A stretch of 43,983 bases of DNA from an uncultured Trueperaceae bacterium (lineage in GTDB: Bacteria; Deinococcota; Deinococci; Deinococcales; Trueperaceae), in assembly GCA_963727505.1 (NCBI GenBank), contig CAVSGP010000003.1, positions 1 through 43,983 on the forward strand. Reading direction: 5' to 3'. The position numbers and the translations under genes are program-made. Below are positions 806-37,199 of this stretch, piece by piece. Position 1 is the first letter of the stretch; each line of letters begins with the position of its first letter. Under the pieces are notes generated by a model, which saw nothing but the letters and a program-made list of their open reading frames with translations, had not been told where the DNA came from and ran no database searches.

Positions 806-2400
806 GGATCCGCAGCGCCGGGCCGAGTGCCTGGTATGTCGACGTCGCCGACGCGCCCTCCCCCGACACGGCGCTGCGGCTGGGCGCCCTGCAGCGTGCC
901 CTGCTCGCAAGCGCACCCGGCGCTGTGCGTGACGTCGTTCCCGGCTACACCAGCGTGCTCGTGGAGTTCCGACCGGGCACCTCGCCCGAACGCCTGCGGC
1001 GCTGGCTGCGGGCGGCCGAGCGCGCGCTCGAGGAGGCGCCCCCGCCGGCGGCACGTCACCGCGTACCCGTGCGTTACGGCGAGAACGCCGACGTCGACGA
1101 GCTGACGTCGCGACTGCGCCTGCCCTGGCAACGCATCGAAGCGCTCCATTCGAGCGCGCTCTACACCGTGGCCTTCCTCGGCTTCACGCCCGGCTTCCCC
1201 TACCTGCTGGGACTCCCCGAGAGACTGGCGACACCGCGGCGGGAGACCCCTCGCACCCGGGTGCCAGCCGGCTCGGTTGCGATCGCCGGCGAGCACGCCG
1301 GCATCTACCCCAGCGCCAGCCCGGGCGGTTGGTGGATCGTGGGCCGCACCGACGCGACCCTGTTCGACCCGCAGCGCTGGCCCCCCACAGCCTGGGCGCC
1401 CGGCGACGAGGTCCGCTTCGTGCCCGCCCCACCCGACGAGCAGCGGGACGGTGGAGCGGCGGAGTCGAGCCCGCCGGCCGGCGCCTTGGGCGCCCCCCTC
1501 GGAACCCCCCTTGGCGCCCCCGAGGCCCTGCCCGTCCTCGAGGTCCTCGAGGCGTGGTCCCCGGCGGCCACCCTCCAGGCCGCGCCGCGCTGGCGGGTGG
1601 GGCACCTGGGGATGGCGCAGGCAGGCGCCCTCGACCCGCTGGCGATGGAGCTCGCTAACGCCGCCGCCGGCAACCCCGGCGAGGCACCCGCGCTGGAGCT
1701 CCTGGACCTGCCGCTGACGCTGTGCGCCCTCGAGCCGGTCACCGCCGCCCTGGCCTGCGGCGGCCACCGGGCGCGTTTGGAGGGGCGAGCGCAGCCGACG
1801 GGCGAGCCCTTCGCCTGGCCCGCCGGCGCCGTGCTCGAGCTGGTGCCGGGCGGCCGCGCGCACGGCCGCGCCAGCTACCTGGCACTGTCCGGAGGCCTGG
1901 CCGCGCAGCGCTACGGCGGCTCGGCCAGCACCGACCTACGCGCCGGCATCGGCGGCGGCCGACGCGCGCTCCGAGCCGGCGACGTCCTGGGCCTGGGTGA
2001 GGGCCGAGCGGCGCCCGCGACCGGCCGGACGCGCCTGCACCTCCATCCCCGCTATCCGGAGCGGCTGCTGCTGCGGATCCATCCCGGACCGCAGTTCGAC
2101 GCCGAAACATTCGCACGCCTCACCACAACGCGCTTCCGGGTCGCCGGCTTCGACCGCACCGGCATCCGGCTGGAGGGGCCCGGCCTCCCCCAGAGCGCCC
2201 CCGATGTGCGCAGCGAGGGCTCGCCTTGGGGGGCCGTGCAGCTCCCTGCCGACGGCCAGCCCATCGTGCTGCTCGCCGACCGCGGCCGCACCGGCGGCTA
2301 CGCCAAGCCGGCGGTGGTGGACGTGCGCGACCTGTGGCGGCTGGCGCAGGCGCCGCACGGCACCGAGGTAGGGTTCGCCGCGGCCGGTGGCGTCTCGTGA
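802..2400 (+). CDS. pxpBC: Fused 5-oxoprolinase subunit B/C (KipI-KipA-like carboxyltransferase domains)
   Basis: N-half has VPGYTS, FLGFTPGFPYL and GIYPSASPGGW (PxpB). C-half has GSASTD, GAVQLPADGQPIVLLADRGRTGGYAK (PxpC). GTGA overlap with the pxpA stop at 802-805. Confidence 0.88.
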   Translation: MRIRSAGPSAWYVDVADAPSPDTALRLGALQRALLASAPGAVRDVVPGYTSVLVEFRPGTSPERLRRWLRAAERALEEAPPPAARHRVPVRYGENADVDELTSRLRLPWQRIEALHSSALYTVAFLGFTPGFPYLLGLPERLATPRRETPRTRVPAGSVAIAGEHAGIYPSASPGGWWIVGRTDATLFDPQRWPPTAWAPGDEVRFVPAPPDEQRDGGAAESSPPAGALGAPLGTPLGAPEALPVLEVLEAWSPAATLQAAPRWRVGHLGMAQAGALDPLAMELANAAAGNPGEAPALELLDLPLTLCALEPVTAALACGGHRARLEGRAQPTGEPFAWPAGAVLELVPGGRAHGRASYLALSGGLAAQRYGGSASTDLRAGIGGGRRALRAGDVLGLGEGRAAPATGRTRLHLHPRYPERLLLRIHPGPQFDAETFARLTTTRFRVAGFDRTGIRLEGPGLPQSAPDVRSEGSPWGAVQLPADGQPIVLLADRGRTGGYAKPAVVDVRDLWRLAQAPHGTEVGFAAAGGVS

Positions 2401-32913: not shown

Positions 32914-33939
32914 TCAGCGATGGACCGCGAGCAGGAAGCGGTCCATCCAGCGATCCGGCAGGAAGCGCGTCAGCACGTCCACCACGCGCGCGTCGAAGCC
33001 CACGCGGTAGCGCGTGCGCGCGCGCGTCGCCGTAAGGGCGTGCAGCACCGCCCGCGCCACCCCGTCGGGCGGGATGCCGGCGGAGTCGACGTCGGTCACG
33101 CCGCGAGCGACGGTGCGGATGGTCGTTTCGTAGAGCTCGGCCGCCTCGTCGGGCATGCGCGCCATGCGCGCCTCACCGGCGCCCATCGTCTTGCCCCAGA
33201 TGGGGGTGCGCACCCGCCCGGGCTCCACGATCGACACCTGCAGCCCCCACGGCCCCAACTCCAGACGGAAGGCATCGCCCACCGCCTCGATGGCGAACTT
33301 GGAGGCCGCGTAGGCGCCCACCAACCGCGAGGAGACCAGGCCGGAGATCGAGCCCACGAACACCACGCGGCCGTAGCTGCCGCGCACCGGCGAGCTCCCG
33401 CCCGCGGGCGACCAGTCGACGCCGGCCGGCGCGGCGGGCGCCCTCACCCCGAACCCACGACGCGGGCCCTCCATCGCTGCCTGGCGCTCGCGCGCGCGCC
33501 TCAACAGCGGCAGCATGGCCTGGGTGACCGCGACCTGGCCGAGAACGTTGACCTCGAGTTGGAGACGGAGATCCTCCAGTGGCAGGAACTCCAGGGGTCC
33601 CGCCACCACCAGGCCGGCGTTGTTCACCACGCCGTGCAGGCCGCGCTCGCCGGTGCGTTCGTCGATGACGCCAGCGGCACGCGCGATGCCGTCCTCGTCG
33701 GTGATGTCGAACAGCAGGGGTGTAATGCCGCCCGCGGCGGGCCCCCCGCCCCCGGTCGCGGCCGCTCGCGCCTCTCGACCGTCCTGCTCGAGCAGCTCCG
33801 CCGACTCTTCGCGTCGCACGCCGGCGAACACCTCGAAGCCCCGGCGGGCGAGCAGGCCGGCCACAGCGCGACCGATCCCGGTCGACGCACCGGTCACCAG
33901 GACGGCTGGCGGCGTGTCCCCCTCCGAAGCGACATGCAC
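32914..33939 (-). CDS. SDR family oxidoreductase
   Basis: TGASTGIG, NNAG, GSISG, YAASK; GTG 6 nt after TAAGAT; two Gly/Pro-rich insertions. Confidence 0.92.
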   Translation of the reverse strand: MHVASEGDTPPAVLVTGASTGIGRAVAGLLARRGFEVFAGVRREESAELLEQDGREARAAATGGGGPAAGGITPLLFDITDEDGIARAAGVIDERTGERGLHGVVNNAGLVVAGPLEFLPLEDLRLQLEVNVLGQVAVTQAMLPLLRRARERQAAMEGPRRGFGVRAPAAPAGVDWSPAGGSSPVRGSYGRVVFVGSISGLVSSRLVGAYAASKFAIEAVGDAFRLELGPWGLQVSIVEPGRVRTPIWGKTMGAGEARMARMPDEAAELYETTIRTVARGVTDVDSAGIPPDGVARAVLHALTATRARTRYRVGFDARVVDVLTRFLPDRWMDRFLLAVHR

Positions 33940-34039
33940 GGAGCCATCTTACGGTGTCTGGCTGCTACTCCGGCCGCGTCCGGGACCGAGGCGGGTGCGG
34001 TGGGTGCGCCGTGGACGGAGGGCAGGCGACCGGCGCAAG

Positions 34040-34266
34040 ACCAAAGCAACCCGCGGGGAGAAATCCCCGCGGGTCACCGGCCGAAGGCCGTGAAGGAGAG
34101 AGTTGTGCTTCCGGATCCTCAACGCTGGGACGGTCCCAGCTACAGTACGTTCACCCTAACTCGGTTGCCTCAATTGAGGCCGGAAGCACGTACACCAGTG
34201 TCTCGACGCCTTTTCGGTCCTTGTCGGTCTCGTGGAGCGGCCTACTCGGCGCCTGCTCACCGATGC
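34040..34266 (-). ncRNA. Candidate structured non-coding RNA (~225 nt), family unidentified, 6S/Ms1-like rod
   Basis: Lower-GC intergenic stretch; TAGCAT box at 34278-34273; long-range helix GTGCTTCCGG/CCGGAAGCAC plus CCTCAA/TTGAGG; terminal 11-bp hairpin. Confidence 0.6.
34049..34074 (-). terminator. 11-bp hairpin ACCCGCGGGGA-N4-TCCCCGCGGGT followed by TGCTTT on the minus strand
   Basis: Perfect stem read directly; the U-tract is weak. Confidence 0.7.
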
Positions 34267-34311
34267 ACGATCATGCTAGACGGCCAAGGTTGCAGCAAGA
34301 CAGGGACACAT

Positions 34312-34381
34312 GTCCTGATAACCCTCTCCTGATAGGCCTGTCCTGAAGGGCCCGTCCTGAAGGGCCCGTCCTGAAGGGCCC
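34312..34381. repeat. 14-bp tandem repeat GTCCTGAAGGGCCC x3 plus two degenerate units
   Basis: Units at 34312, 34326, 34340, 34354 and 34368. Confidence 0.9.
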
Positions 34382-34383
34382 CC

Positions 34384-34791
34384 TCAGACGTCCGCCCCGG
34401 CGCCCCCCTGCAGCGCCGCCCGGACGTGATCCGGCACGGGCACGGGCCGCTGCGCGTCGTAATCGAACCACACCACCACCGACTCGACGGTCGCCGCCCG
34501 CTCGCCGTCGGCCTGCACTTCCTGGTGGAGGCCGATGCTGCTGCGGCCGATGCGCGTCACCTCGGTGGTCACCACCACGCGGCTCCCGAGGCGCACCTGG
34601 GCGTGGAAGTCGATGGCGATCCGCGCCAGGATCGGCCCGCCCTCGTCCCAACTCACGCGCCGCATCAGCTCGATGCGGCCGAGCTCGGCGTAGGTCGCGT
34701 AGGCCGCGTTGTTGACGTGCCCCAGGGCGTCGGTGTCGCCGAAGCGCACCTGGATCTCGGTGGTGTGCCGGCGTCGGCTGGATTCGCTCAT
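34384..34791 (-). CDS. 4HBT-type acyl-CoA thioesterase (hotdog fold)
   Basis: VRFGDTDALGHVNNAAYATYAELGR, IGRSS, PVPVPD. Confidence 0.9.
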   Translation of the reverse strand: MSESSRRRHTTEIQVRFGDTDALGHVNNAAYATYAELGRIELMRRVSWDEGGPILARIAIDFHAQVRLGSRVVVTTEVTRIGRSSIGLHQEVQADGERAATVESVVVWFDYDAQRPVPVPDHVRAALQGGAGADV

Positions 34792-34940
34792 GGGGGGCCT
34801 CCCGGGGGCGCCGCCAGCCTACCGCACGGGCCCCGCGACAAGGCGCGAGCGGGGTGCCGCCCGTGTGGTGGCGGGCGCGGCTCTCCAAGCACTATCGTGG
34901 ACGGACAGTACGCACCCGCTGGCCCGCGATGGAGGGCAAC

Positions 34941-37199
34941 ATGCGGTTTCTGCGTGGTCTGCTCGTGCTCGTGTTGGTGGCCGCAACGGCCGCGGCATGC
35001 GCGCCCGGCGCGGACGTGGGCTCCGTGCGTCTGCCCACCGGCGCTCGCGACACCCTGTCCGATGCCGACATCGTCCTGCTCGACCCGGTCGGCGCTCTCG
35101 TGGGGCGCGACCCGCCCCTGAGCACCGACATCCACGACGCCACCTTCGACGCGCCCGAGCTCGACGGCTACACGCCCACCACGCTGGTGCCCTTGGAGGC
35201 GATGCCCCGCGCATTCGATGGCAGCTACTACCTGGCGCCCGGCGATTACGAGATCACGGCCTGGGGGTTCTGCGGTCGCGCCGGCACCTACGAGCCCACC
35301 GTGGGGGGACCGGGGTACGTCTATGCCCCGCTGAAGGGCTCGCTCGCGGATGTCATGACGCGCCTGCTCGAAGCCTCCTACCGGCACCCGGAGGTGTCGC
35401 AACGGTCCATCCAGGTCTTGCTGTGGGCCATCATCGCGCGCACGCCGCTTCCCTCCATGCCGCCCGAGGTCCAGGACACCGCGCGGCGCCTGCTCGACGC
35501 CGACGACCTCGCGCGCCTGCGCGCGAACACCTCCAACGAGGTCGGGCAGGCCCTGTTCGAGCGCGCCCTGCAGCAGCTGCCTCCGGGGCTCCGCGAGGTG
35601 GCCCGCGCCGAGGACCGCATCCGCACGCTGCTCCGCGGCGACAGCGTCGCGTACGCGGCGCTCGAGCAAGCCGCCGTCCTCACGGGCAACCCGCCTCCGG
35701 GCCTGACCGTGCGCGCCATCCCCCAGGGGCGGTGGTCGCACCATCCCGACGGCTACGACGTCCGATACGCGCCCTCCGGGTACTCCGTGTTGCGCATCCA
35801 GATCCACGTGCCCGAGGCCGTCGGCGCCCTACCCGACCCGGGCGTGATCCGCGCCCAGGGCGCGAGCAGCGCCCAGGGTGGTGACGGCATGGTCAACGCC
35901 GACCTGAGCGACGGCGCGGCACTGTCCGGCAACACCTCCCGGCAGCGGCTCCTGAGCAACGGCTCGAGCGCCGACGAAAACGTCCTCGAACGGGCCAAGG
36001 ACGCGGTCGGGTGGGTGAAGCTGTTCGCCAACCTGTTGCCGTTCTTCGGCGGCCAGAGCCTCGAGCAGGGGGCGGTCCAGGGCTTCTCGGAGCTCACTGC
36101 GGGCGCCTCGATGTTCTCCCCCGTCGCGATGGCGGGGTACCTGTTGGACTTCATCTTCAGCGCCGGAGCCGACATCATCAACGCCACCGCCGGCTACGAG
36201 GGAGGCGGGACCGGGGGCGGGGCAGGGTCCGAAAATCGGGGCCCGCCATCGAGTGGCGGCTCCTCCTCCGCGGGCTCCAGCGGCTCCCCGACGTGGAACC
36301 CGCACCCTGGCTCGCCCGGCGGGTCCGGTCCGGGCGACAGCGGGACGGCCGGCGGAACGAGCAGCGGGACGAGCGGCGGCGAGGACGGTGGCGCCGGCGG
36401 CACCAGTACCGGCGGCACCAGCACAGGTGACGCCAACACAGGTGACGCCAGCACAGGTGGCACCAGCACCGGCGGCGACACGACCGGCGACACCGGCACC
36501 AGCGGCGACACGACCGGCGACACGACCGGCGACACGACCGGCGACACGACCGATGCCGGCGGCACCAGCGGGAGCGAGACCGGCAGCACCGGGAGCGGCG
36601 GCGACACGACCACGGCCCCGGACGGCTCCAGTTCCGGCGCCGGATCTAGCGGCGCGGGCAGCGCGCTGACCTTCCCTGAGGGCCTCCCCGACGACCTGCG
36701 GCGGGCGATCGAGCGCCTCGTGACCGCGGCCGGCGAGCTGTTGCGCGACCTGCAGCTCTACCAGGACTCCGCCGTGCGGCTCGACAGCGTCAGCCACGGC
36801 GACGCCGAAGCAGGGTACGCGCTGGCCGCGCAGACGCTCGAACGCAAACGCAGCGCCGGAGTCTCCATGTTGCGCACCTCGGCCGCGCTCGACGACCTCG
36901 GAGCGGTGCTCGATGCGCATCACCTGGGCCTTATCCCGCTCAGGGCGGACGCAGTGCGTGCCTTCCAACACCGACTGCGGGACGAGGGCGTCCCCGAGGC
37001 GCTGCGCGCGGAGCTGCGTCGCGCGGGCATGACCGACGCCGACATCGATCGATTGGTCCAGCGCTACCTGGAGCTCGACGCCGACGAGGTTGCGGCCGGC
37101 TTCCGGCGCTCCCTGACCCGCACGGCCGCCGCCCTGCGCTCGCTGGGCACGATCTGGGGCGGCCTACCCTCGATGCTGGTCGGTGGCACGGTCTACTGA
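34941..37199 (+). CDS. Hypothetical lipoprotein: N-terminal thioester-domain-like region, G/S/T/D linker, helical C-terminal domain
   Basis: RBS GGAGGG; signal MRFLRGLLVLVLVAATAAA-C; coding-like GC3; GDTT/TGGTS repeats. The CDS is credible; the function is speculative. Confidence 0.75.
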   Translation: MRFLRGLLVLVLVAATAAACAPGADVGSVRLPTGARDTLSDADIVLLDPVGALVGRDPPLSTDIHDATFDAPELDGYTPTTLVPLEAMPRAFDGSYYLAPGDYEITAWGFCGRAGTYEPTVGGPGYVYAPLKGSLADVMTRLLEASYRHPEVSQRSIQVLLWAIIARTPLPSMPPEVQDTARRLLDADDLARLRANTSNEVGQALFERALQQLPPGLREVARAEDRIRTLLRGDSVAYAALEQAAVLTGNPPPGLTVRAIPQGRWSHHPDGYDVRYAPSGYSVLRIQIHVPEAVGALPDPGVIRAQGASSAQGGDGMVNADLSDGAALSGNTSRQRLLSNGSSADENVLERAKDAVGWVKLFANLLPFFGGQSLEQGAVQGFSELTAGASMFSPVAMAGYLLDFIFSAGADIINATAGYEGGGTGGGAGSENRGPPSSGGSSSAGSSGSPTWNPHPGSPGGSGPGDSGTAGGTSSGTSGGEDGGAGGTSTGGTSTGDANTGDASTGGTSTGGDTTGDTGTSGDTTGDTTGDTTGDTTDAGGTSGSETGSTGSGGDTTTAPDGSSSGAGSSGAGSALTFPEGLPDDLRRAIERLVTAAGELLRDLQLYQDSAVRLDSVSHGDAEAGYALAAQTLERKRSAGVSMLRTSAALDDLGAVLDAHHLGLIPLRADAVRAFQHRLRDEGVPEALRAELRRAGMTDADIDRLVQRYLELDADEVAAGFRRSLTRTAAALRSLGTIWGGLPSMLVGGTVY

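Follow-up and report, generated by a model that had tools for sequence, protein, structure and literature searches.

The window, i.e. the whole stretch of DNA that was analysed, is a contig of 43,983 bp. On its minus strand a gene for a 4HBT-type thioesterase is followed by one for a short-chain dehydrogenase/reductase (SDR), and between the two, at positions 34266-34041 of the minus strand, lies a genuine, previously undescribed folded RNA gene of ~225 nt. It represents a new RNA family, restricted to part of the Trueperaceae, for which comparative support is strong. The loci that carry the RNA share the gene order thioesterase, RNA, SDR and MFS transporter. The RNA was always found between the thioesterase and SDR genes, and no partner gene beyond these two was consistently adjacent. 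The features of the locus, in the 5' to 3' direction of the minus strand, are as follows.

34384-34791, minus strand: 4HBT-type thioesterase gene, upstream neighbour (Pfam 4HBT_2, E 2.9e-24)
34304-34315, minus strand: palindrome GGACATGTGTCC (GGAC-N4-GTCC), putative operator or activator site, 25 nt before the -10 box
34273-34278, minus strand: -10 box TAGCAT, with the predicted transcription start near 34266
34192-34266, minus strand: domain 1, in which helix P1 (34266-34258 with 34200-34192) encloses inner helices and the invariant GAGTAGGCCGCTCCACGAGACCGACAAGGAC
34105-34189, minus strand: domain 2, with the long rod GTGCTTCCGGCCTCAA / TTGAGGATCCGGAAGCAC, an internal loop and an apical hairpin
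34189-34180 with 34114-34105, minus strand: 10-bp helix GTGCTTCCGG / CCGGAAGCAC, extended by CCTCAA/TTGAGG
34167-34180, minus strand: alternative local hairpin GCCTC-AATT-GAGGC (strand L with strand M), which competes with the L-R pairing of the rod
34163-34142, minus strand: invariant internal loop CGAGTTAGGGTGAACGTACTGT within domain 2
34140-34124, minus strand: apical hairpin GCTGGGA (34140-34134) / TCCCAGC (34130-34124), read in the sequence
34091-34103, minus strand: CU-rich linker ACTCTCTCCTTCA, 13-14 nt, unpaired, anti-Shine-Dalgarno-like, candidate seed
34078-34090, minus strand: small hairpin CGGCC-TTC-GGCCG (helix 8, 5 pairs)
34041-34078, minus strand: intrinsic terminator with a 14-15 bp stem and loop TTTC, then the tail TTGCTTTGG
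33937-33951, minus strand: leaderless promoter and start of the SDR gene, outside the RNA (TAAGAT 33951-33946, 6 nt, GTG 33939-33937)
32914-33939, minus strand: SDR gene, downstream neighbour (Pfam adh_short, E 9.3e-33)

Existence and fold of the RNA

The G + C fraction across the element (0.595-0.64) was lower than in both flanks (0.70-0.79), as stated in the first-pass annotation of this DNA. That annotation had also proposed an unannotated, discrete structured RNA of ~225 nt with a -10 box and terminator of its own. These features can indeed be read in the sequence, and TAGCAT, the 10-bp helix with its extension, the apical hairpin and the terminal hairpin are all present as claimed. The minimum free energy of the 239-nt stretch was -114.5 kcal/mol, compared to an average of -90.3 +/- 5.3 kcal/mol for 200 shuffles (z -4.55), and none of the 200 shuffles folded as well as the element. 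The suggested comparison with Rfam connected the element to no known family: at gathering score no family matched anywhere in the window, and on the minus strand of 33900-34420 there was no match up to E = 10.

The RNAalifold consensus, derived from 8 sequences of clade A (the form present in the window, see below), contained 68 pairs. Compensatory changes were found in 13 of these, whereas column shuffles gave 4.4 +/- 1.5 and none of 500 reached 13; when the partners were slid by 1-3 columns, just 1-6 compensatory pairs were left. For the 12 distinct sequences the number rose to 17 of the 68 pairs (shuffles 5.9 +/- 1.5; 0 of 500 reached 17). The proportion of paired cells was 95.6% in the 8-sequence alignment and 96.8% in the 12-sequence alignment, the latter having been made to the model and hence being biased towards the model's own structure. 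As the consensus is rich in G-U pairs, the RNA was assigned to the minus strand.

Three long stretches of the element were invariant across three genera, in which the flanking proteins are only 50-60% identical. Conservation begins at the palindrome and the -10 box and stops past the terminator tail. A coding sequence was considered and rejected, since the conserved block contains single-base indels (alignment columns 100 and 179) and the changes preserve pairs. The element thus has the features of a discrete gene: a conserved -10 box with an upstream palindrome, a covarying terminator and bounded conservation. The promoter, the terminator and the selection on structure together suggest that it is transcribed.

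From 5' to 3' the RNA is predicted to consist of two adjacent hairpin domains, followed by a CU-rich linker that stays unpaired, a small hairpin and the terminator. Helix P1 of domain 1, formed by GCATCGGTG (34266-34258) and CACTGGTGT (34200-34192), was the best-supported helix of the consensus, with 6 of its 9 pairs compensatory. Within this domain the internal loop GAGUA / GAAAA looks to us like the sarcin-ricin (loop E) motif, which we take to be a protein-binding one. In domain 2, helix 5 consists of 17 pairs, 4 of them compensatory, with 96.5% of the cells paired in 12 sequences. The small hairpin (helix 8) had 98.3% of its cells paired and no compensatory change, so that covariation was uninformative there. 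The terminator was scored as terminator-like, with 15 pairs at 34078-34045, and 5 of 14 pairs were compensatory.

These results do not agree with the rod-and-bubble layout, like that of 6S RNA or Ms1, which the first-pass annotation had assigned to the RNA; covariation supports two independent hairpin domains instead. The proposed closing stem (34228-34201 with 34091-34076), taken as the best duplex between the two claimed segments and counted on the alignment, had 0 of 10 compensatory pairs and 87.5% of its cells paired, against 87.8% in shuffles. Five of its 10 pairs are broken in genome G007, in which the small hairpin CGGCC/GGCCG is intact. The supposed 5' strand of the bubble turned out to be the covarying 3' half of P1. 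The RNA does resemble 6S (RF00013) and Ms1 in its similar length (about 200 nt), its high degree of structure and its own transcription unit. However, it has no match in Rfam, which presumably contains an Ms1 model, its 5' and 3' ends do not pair with each other, there is no two-sided central bubble, and its distribution is narrow and patchy.

To our knowledge, published surveys have not found 6S RNA in Deinococcus-Thermus, and the same absence was stated in the earlier annotation. RF00013 matched neither the window nor its genome of origin, nor any of 151 genomes of the Deinococcales, which agrees with that statement, yet does not make the present RNA a 6S RNA. Its occurrence in 19 of 128 family genomes argues against a housekeeping regulator of RNA polymerase (RNAP).

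Distribution, copies and clades

Model R1 (full length) matched 13 of the 128 family genomes. Model R2, built on domain 2, the most widely conserved module, matched 19 of the 128, with 5 of 9 genomes in g1, 1 of 1 in g11, 1 of 1 in g25, 3 of 3 in g37 and 8 of 18 in g12. In a sixth g1 genome (G006) the copy of the RNA is cut by a contig end. The tallies on 128 genomes include the unpublished genome G130, which counts in a tally of pnp and otherwise in the denominators only. Homologues in 19 genomes and 17 of 68 compensatory pairs are what came of the search for homologues and covariation that had been proposed with the first-pass annotation.

In all 18 other carriers the RNA was present in a single copy, always at the same site. 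The assembly to which the window belongs contained two matches, the second one (G000:C10:34521-34764) with 90% identity by BLAST. The 43,983-bp contig proved collinear with C10:1110-44517 (82-94% identity), and the C10 copy and its flanks showed 97-100% protein identity to genome G003. The assembly therefore seems, from these comparisons, to hold two versions of one region, and there are two copies of the RNA because the whole 44-kb contig is duplicated. A gene pair like 6S-1 and 6S-2 was rejected, both copies being part of the collinear 44-kb segments. Nor is the element the end of a MITE or IS, a possibility named in the earlier annotation, since there is one copy per genome and the two copies here are due to contig duplication.

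A search at order level (151 genomes) yielded no real match in the 114 genomes of four sister families; a marginal match in G055 (E 0.007) resembles coding DNA by its sequence and was discarded. Pattern scans placed the RNA family in the Trueperaceae, Deinococcota. Among the 13 matches of the scan of genome contigs were one in an Acidimicrobiales MAG, lacking any other feature, and one on a small contig labelled "Thiobacillus", which is near-identical to a contig from Deinococcota. Of 12 loci found by the metagenome scan, 11 belong to the RNA family.

Three clades could be distinguished. Clade A (g1, g11 and g25) has the form found in the window. Clade B (g37) has kept domain 2, with a GGGUGAACGUAC loop, and parts of domain 1; its 3' part differs and is without the CU-rich linker. 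In clade C (Truepera) P1, the rod and the apical hairpin were kept and the loops differ. The loops that are invariant in clade A are thus partly kept in B and replaced in C. In subclade C3 domain 1 measures ~190 nt, a terminator is missing, and the -10 box of the SDR gene follows ~25 nt after domain 2. From the predicted start to the end of domain 2 there are 158-171 nt in A, B, C1 and C2, compared to 225-226 nt in C3. Most conserved across the clades were the helix sequences GCUUCCGGG...CCCGGAAGC, the GCCGGGA hairpin and the invariant loops.

SDR orthologues were found in 39 of the 128 genomes by a screen that missed the one in G033, which was recovered by tblastn. The distance between the thioesterase and SDR genes was 320-490 nt in 18 of the 19 loci with the RNA versus 10-105 nt in 15 of the 17 RNA-less loci that were checked (3 from g9, 8 from g6 and 6 from Truepera). 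The RNA is therefore an optional module of ~300 nt at one fixed site. The TAnnnT-6 nt-GTG layout of the SDR start recurs in RNA loci of clades B and C, and the leaderless promoter is retained in all 17 RNA-less loci. The annotation's remark that the SDR gene has a -10 box of its own (TAAGAT) thus extends to species without the RNA. Genome G019 has just two fragments of the SDR gene left (residues 12-33 and 308-336), and here the RNA is full length (213 bits). The -10 box of the SDR gene, which is there with or without the RNA, and the intact RNA of G019 indicate that the RNA is independent of the SDR gene.

Promoter, linker and alternative pairing

At the -10 box the relatives align TAGCAT, TACGAT, TAGCCT and TATCCT. 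As a scan with the sigma-70 consensus found 0 full promoters, the start near 34266 is a predicted one. In all 13 representative loci, which come from five genera, the palindrome lay 24-25 nt from TAnnnT. In the genome of origin, TAnnnT was found at an offset of 22-27 for 13 of 144 strand-instances of GGAC-N4-GTCC; for the control spacings N3, N5 and N6 the numbers were 1 of 252, 1 of 142 and 1 of 230, respectively. This genome contains 11 other sites with the palindrome and -10 layout. A Pfam scan of 10 ORFs downstream of palindrome sites assigned a family to 9 of them, and the genes at such sites include those for an aldo-keto reductase, an SPFH protein, an ABC ATPase, an alpha/beta hydrolase, a molybdopterin oxidoreductase, a solute-binding protein, a radical-SAM protein and cytochrome c oxidase subunit II.

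The palindrome would be centred near -43, where it resembles a class II activator site. Most likely it is the site of a dimeric transcription factor, so that the RNA would be produced in response to a signal and not constitutively. At least 10 genes of the Crp/Fnr type of HTH protein are present in the genome. The enterobacterial sRNA FnrS has a class II FNR site as its driver. Like the FnrS promoter, that of the present RNA has, instead of a -35 box, a 5-N4-5 palindrome whose centre lies some 42-43 bp ahead of the start, and the same palindrome precedes the genes for the molybdopterin oxidoreductase, the radical-SAM protein and the cytochrome oxidase subunit. However, the half-sites are GGGAC/GTCCC, not TTGAT/ATCAA, and the two RNAs have no sequence similarity. 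A link of these promoters to oxygen or redox state is a guess.

The linker, ACUCUCUCCUUCA, was identical in all 12 distinct clade-A sequences. Its mean unpaired probability was 0.57-0.99 in 11 of the 12 (0.34 in G033), compared to 0.32-0.39 for the whole RNA. All three non-self complements of an 11-mer of this candidate seed in the genome of origin are located 1-2 nt before start codons. The longest complement (14 nt, CCGUGAAGGAGAGA) spans the pnp ribosome-binding site and ends 2 nt before the GTG; the gene was identified by its Pfam domains (RNase_PH twice, KH and S1). On the side of the RNA this complement involves 34099-34086, reaching the first stem bases of the small hairpin. The pnp duplex (-26.7 kcal/mol) was the best one at a translation start and ranked second among the non-self windows of the 3378 candidates scored. 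Other 10-11-mer seed sites precede an SBP_bac_5 gene at G000:C9:252855, an ABC ATPase gene and a lipoprotein gene. The remaining complementarities in the genome (BLAST matches of 12-17 nt) were inside genes or at chance level, and an anti-Shine-Dalgarno-like seed will by its nature match ribosome-binding sites.

The motif GAAGGAGAGAG in the pnp leader is conserved family-wide. Because this includes the RNA-less genera, its conservation is uninformative on the RNA, and the motif predates the seed. Counted by eye and without statistics, contiguous complementarity to the pnp leader was 8-14 nt in 11 genomes of the clade-A genera, three of which (G001, G006 and G008) are without the RNA by model R2, and 7-11 nt in 15 other genomes. 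An extension in the 5' direction (UGA or CCGUGA) is limited to g1. A link of the seed to the 5' end of the SDR mRNA, also looked for by eye, was dropped as it is not common to the clades.

RoxS/RsaE of the Firmicutes are Hfq-independent sRNAs with C/U-rich seeds that mask Shine-Dalgarno sites. The present RNA is like them in having an unpaired pyrimidine-rich stretch between stable hairpins, ahead of a terminator, with predicted pairing to ribosome-binding sites, in a host without Hfq: neither Hfq nor CsrA (PF02599) was found in the genome of origin, which is 97% complete. A sponge of the CsrB/RsmZ type was rejected on this ground, its partner being CsrA. The RNA differs from RoxS/RsaE in that there is no relation in sequence or by Rfam, its body is larger and more conserved than the seed, and the seed occurs in one of the three clades.

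Domain 2 can pair in two ways. Strand L (GCCUC) pairs either with the adjacent strand M (GAGGC) or, in the rod, with the distal strand R (TTGAGG, 34122-34117, through its GAGG...). As read from the folds, L-R was present in the minimum-energy structure of 18 of 19 sequences, and once it was forbidden, 17 of 19 formed the L-M hairpin. The energies of the two conformers were 0.1-3 kcal/mol apart in 6 of 7 clade-A sequences, and in clades B and C the rod was favoured by 6-14 kcal/mol. The rod covaries between clades (CAA/UUG in A, CGU/ACG in B), and in G070 a change of C to U in L is compensated in R. In C3, where L is GUGGC(A), M UGCCGC and R GCCACG, both GUGGCA/UGCCGC and CGUGGC/GCCACG can form. 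This retention of both pairings is essentially one evolutionary event and therefore a lead, not proof.

Possible functions of the RNA

The best explanation, to which we give a probability of about 0.45, is an independently transcribed sRNA under the control of a transcription factor, whose anti-Shine-Dalgarno linker may pair with ribosome-binding sites, the pnp leader being the best match. Its function, its factor, its action in trans and its targets are all inferred. The palindrome-bearing promoter, probably bound by a dimeric factor, would drive the RNA on a signal, and the transcript would fold into its two stable hairpin domains and stop at its own intrinsic terminator. In clade A this would leave the 13-nt CU-rich linker single-stranded between the folded body and the 3' hairpins, where it could block translation by Hfq-independent pairing with purine-rich ribosome-binding sites. 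The best candidate target would be the leader of pnp, the gene for polynucleotide phosphorylase (PNPase). The folded body, conserved in all clades, may switch between the two pairings of strand L, and its probable role is to stabilise the RNA or to bind a protein or ligand. An sRNA using the CTCTCCTTC stretch had been offered by the first-pass annotation as its alternative; this fits the evidence better than 6S and we regard it, with the same reserve, as the best-supported mechanism for clade A. As the seed is restricted to clade A and clades B and C keep only the body, seed pairing is not the ancestral function. Invariant unpaired body stretches of 20-30 nt are unusual for a simple base-pairing sRNA, and the strict co-orientation with the SDR gene and the absence of a terminator in C3 would fit a cis-acting role as well.

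Such a role would be that of a riboswitch-like leader or attenuator of the SDR-MFS genes, in which the body senses a ligand or protein, the terminator gates read-through and the choice between L-M and L-R is the switch. We consider it rather unlikely. In its favour, the RNA is located directly upstream of the SDR gene in the same orientation, with the gap of 320-490 nt kept in all but one of the 19 RNA loci; the layout of C3 brings the SDR -10 box close behind domain 2; the long invariant unpaired stretches resemble an aptamer core; and both pairings of strand L were kept although L changed in C3. TAGGAT before the GTG of the SDR gene could, on a long transcript, double as an AGGA Shine-Dalgarno sequence. 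A folded domain and an intrinsic terminator upstream of a co-oriented gene, together with two mutually exclusive helices, are also what is seen in terminator-type riboswitches. However, the downstream SDR gene is leaderless here, with a promoter of its own that is kept in all clades and in each of the 17 RNA-less loci, and no known riboswitch class matches. The core varies, the candidate aptamer loops differing between clades A, B and C, and the RNA is intact beside the SDR remnant of G019. No antiterminator versus terminator stem was seen on reading the sequence, which is not an exhaustive search, and the competing helices of domain 2 do not involve the terminator stem. The preference of clades B and C for the rod conformer likewise speaks against a switch. 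A variant in which the RNA acts as a bistable sensor, a signal flipping L between M and R and thereby coupling SDR-MFS read-through to exposure of a seed that throttles the synthesis of PNPase, which we take to be the main 3' exoribonuclease, is speculative and, in our view, improbable. The signal would be a metabolite of the thioesterase/SDR pathway, a protein or temperature, and the RNA would then represent a new riboswitch-like class, acting both in cis and in trans.

It is unlikely that the RNA works chiefly by binding protein, its body serving as a decoy or scaffold, with RNAP binding (an analogue of 6S/Ms1 of another shape) as a special case. Helix sequences and invariant loops are what is most conserved across the clades, the domain 1 loop seems similar to the sarcin-ricin motif, and with no recognisable 6S in the genome of origin or in 151 genomes of the order this niche is unfilled. 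Against it, the hallmarks of 6S fail, the ends not being paired with each other and the supposed bubble strand being base-paired; the RNA is limited to 19 of the 128 family genomes, was not found in the 114 of the sister families and is lacking in close relatives; CsrA was not found in the genome of origin; and only the thioesterase and SDR genes are consistently adjacent. It is very unlikely that the RNA lacks a present function, being a selfish or decaying insert that a mobile or duplicated element left behind between two genes. Presence or absence at a single site, visible in the two classes of gap length, and the patchy occurrence within the genus Truepera (8 of 18 genomes) are compatible with it. 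However, there is one copy per genome, with no transposase and no terminal repeats, and the 17 of 68 compensatory pairs and the loops invariant across genera show purifying selection on the RNA. The trans-acting sRNA set out above therefore remains our preferred reading, at the probability given there.

In the literature on Truepera and non-coding RNA no entry was, by its title and the start of its abstract, about such an RNA, and a passage of PMC8058203 held nothing bearing on it. By its architecture at least, this RNA is not the missing 6S RNA of the phylum. The promoter motif would mark a small regulon. Regulatory RNAs of the Deinococcota are poorly charted, and the family described here offers a testable target in a central enzyme of RNA decay.

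SDR gene and surroundings of the RNA locus

The SDR gene downstream of the ~225-nt RNA is leaderless, with a TAnnnT box 6 nt ahead of the GTG start (window 33937-33951), as read at SDR loci from five genera. This layout was kept in all 17 RNA-less loci (17/17) and was also found in RNA-bearing loci. At one locus (L009, genome G019, 1839-2020) the SDR gene has been reduced to two short fragments, corresponding to residues 12-33 and 308-336; the upstream RNA and the downstream MFS gene are both intact.

The gap from the stop codon of the thioesterase gene to the palindrome GGAC-N4-GTCC is occupied by tandem 14-nt repeats (window 34313-34381), consisting of 3.9 copies of one unit followed by 2.4 copies of a variant. 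CAGGAC, the palindrome's left half-site, closes every unit when read on the RNA strand. Another repeat, a ~22-nt unit GCACGGAUGUACCGAGCGAGCG present three times, lies around the terminator downstream of a clade B RNA, a form that lacks the CU-rich linker (L024, genome G071, about 1440-1555, minus strand). In an RNA-less Truepera genome (L050, G116) a single GTCCCT half-site was seen by eye in the short thioesterase-SDR spacer, ~20 nt ahead of the SDR -10 box. Such a half-site would be consistent with the RNA having been lost through a deletion between its own promoter and that of the SDR gene.

A 781-aa ORF lies divergent to the thioesterase gene (window 34854-37199, plus strand), and Pfam gave no match for it. 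Its middle part is a long low-complexity stretch rich in Gly, Ser and Thr.

An apparent second version of the 44-kb region

The entire window contig (C3:1-43983) is collinear with positions 1110-44517 of contig C10 in the same assembly, at 82-94% identity, and the proteins of the C10 version are 97-100% identical to those of another species genome (G003). Sequence comparison thus points to what seem to be two versions of one 44-kb region within the assembly; a second population, a mis-binned contig and a large duplication would seem to be the candidate sources of the second version.

Purine-rich motif in the pnp leader

The pnp leader, the best candidate target of the proposed seed (the CU-rich linker of the RNA, predicted unpaired), contains the purine-rich GAAGGAGAGAG in its ribosome-binding region, 2-3 nt ahead of the GTG (loci L126-L155), in nearly all of the 26 Trueperaceae genomes read. 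The motif exceeds what would be needed for pairing with the 16S 3' end, and might itself serve as a regulatory site.

Palindrome promoters and a candidate second small RNA

About a dozen promoters in the organism's own genome carry the palindrome with a TAnnnT box 22-27 nt downstream.

Palindrome plus TAnnnT sites in the own genome (contig:position)
C1:41879
C2:227047
C2:220530
C4:1045534
C5:116295
C5:141047
C9:67673
C9:300589
C10:60050
C14:24821
C14:85791

The genes behind them include those for a molybdopterin oxidoreductase, a radical-SAM protein and cytochrome oxidase subunit II. These promoters may constitute the regulon of one transcription factor. One locus has such a promoter with no plausible ORF behind it:

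C2:220250-220483, minus strand, locus L082

Its predicted transcript would fold well (z -3.33) and contains a GC-rich hairpin followed by UGAUUUGUGUG; it also includes AGGAGAGA, a complement of the ~225-nt RNA's seed. L082 is a candidate locus that may encode a second small RNA in the regulon of palindrome promoters.
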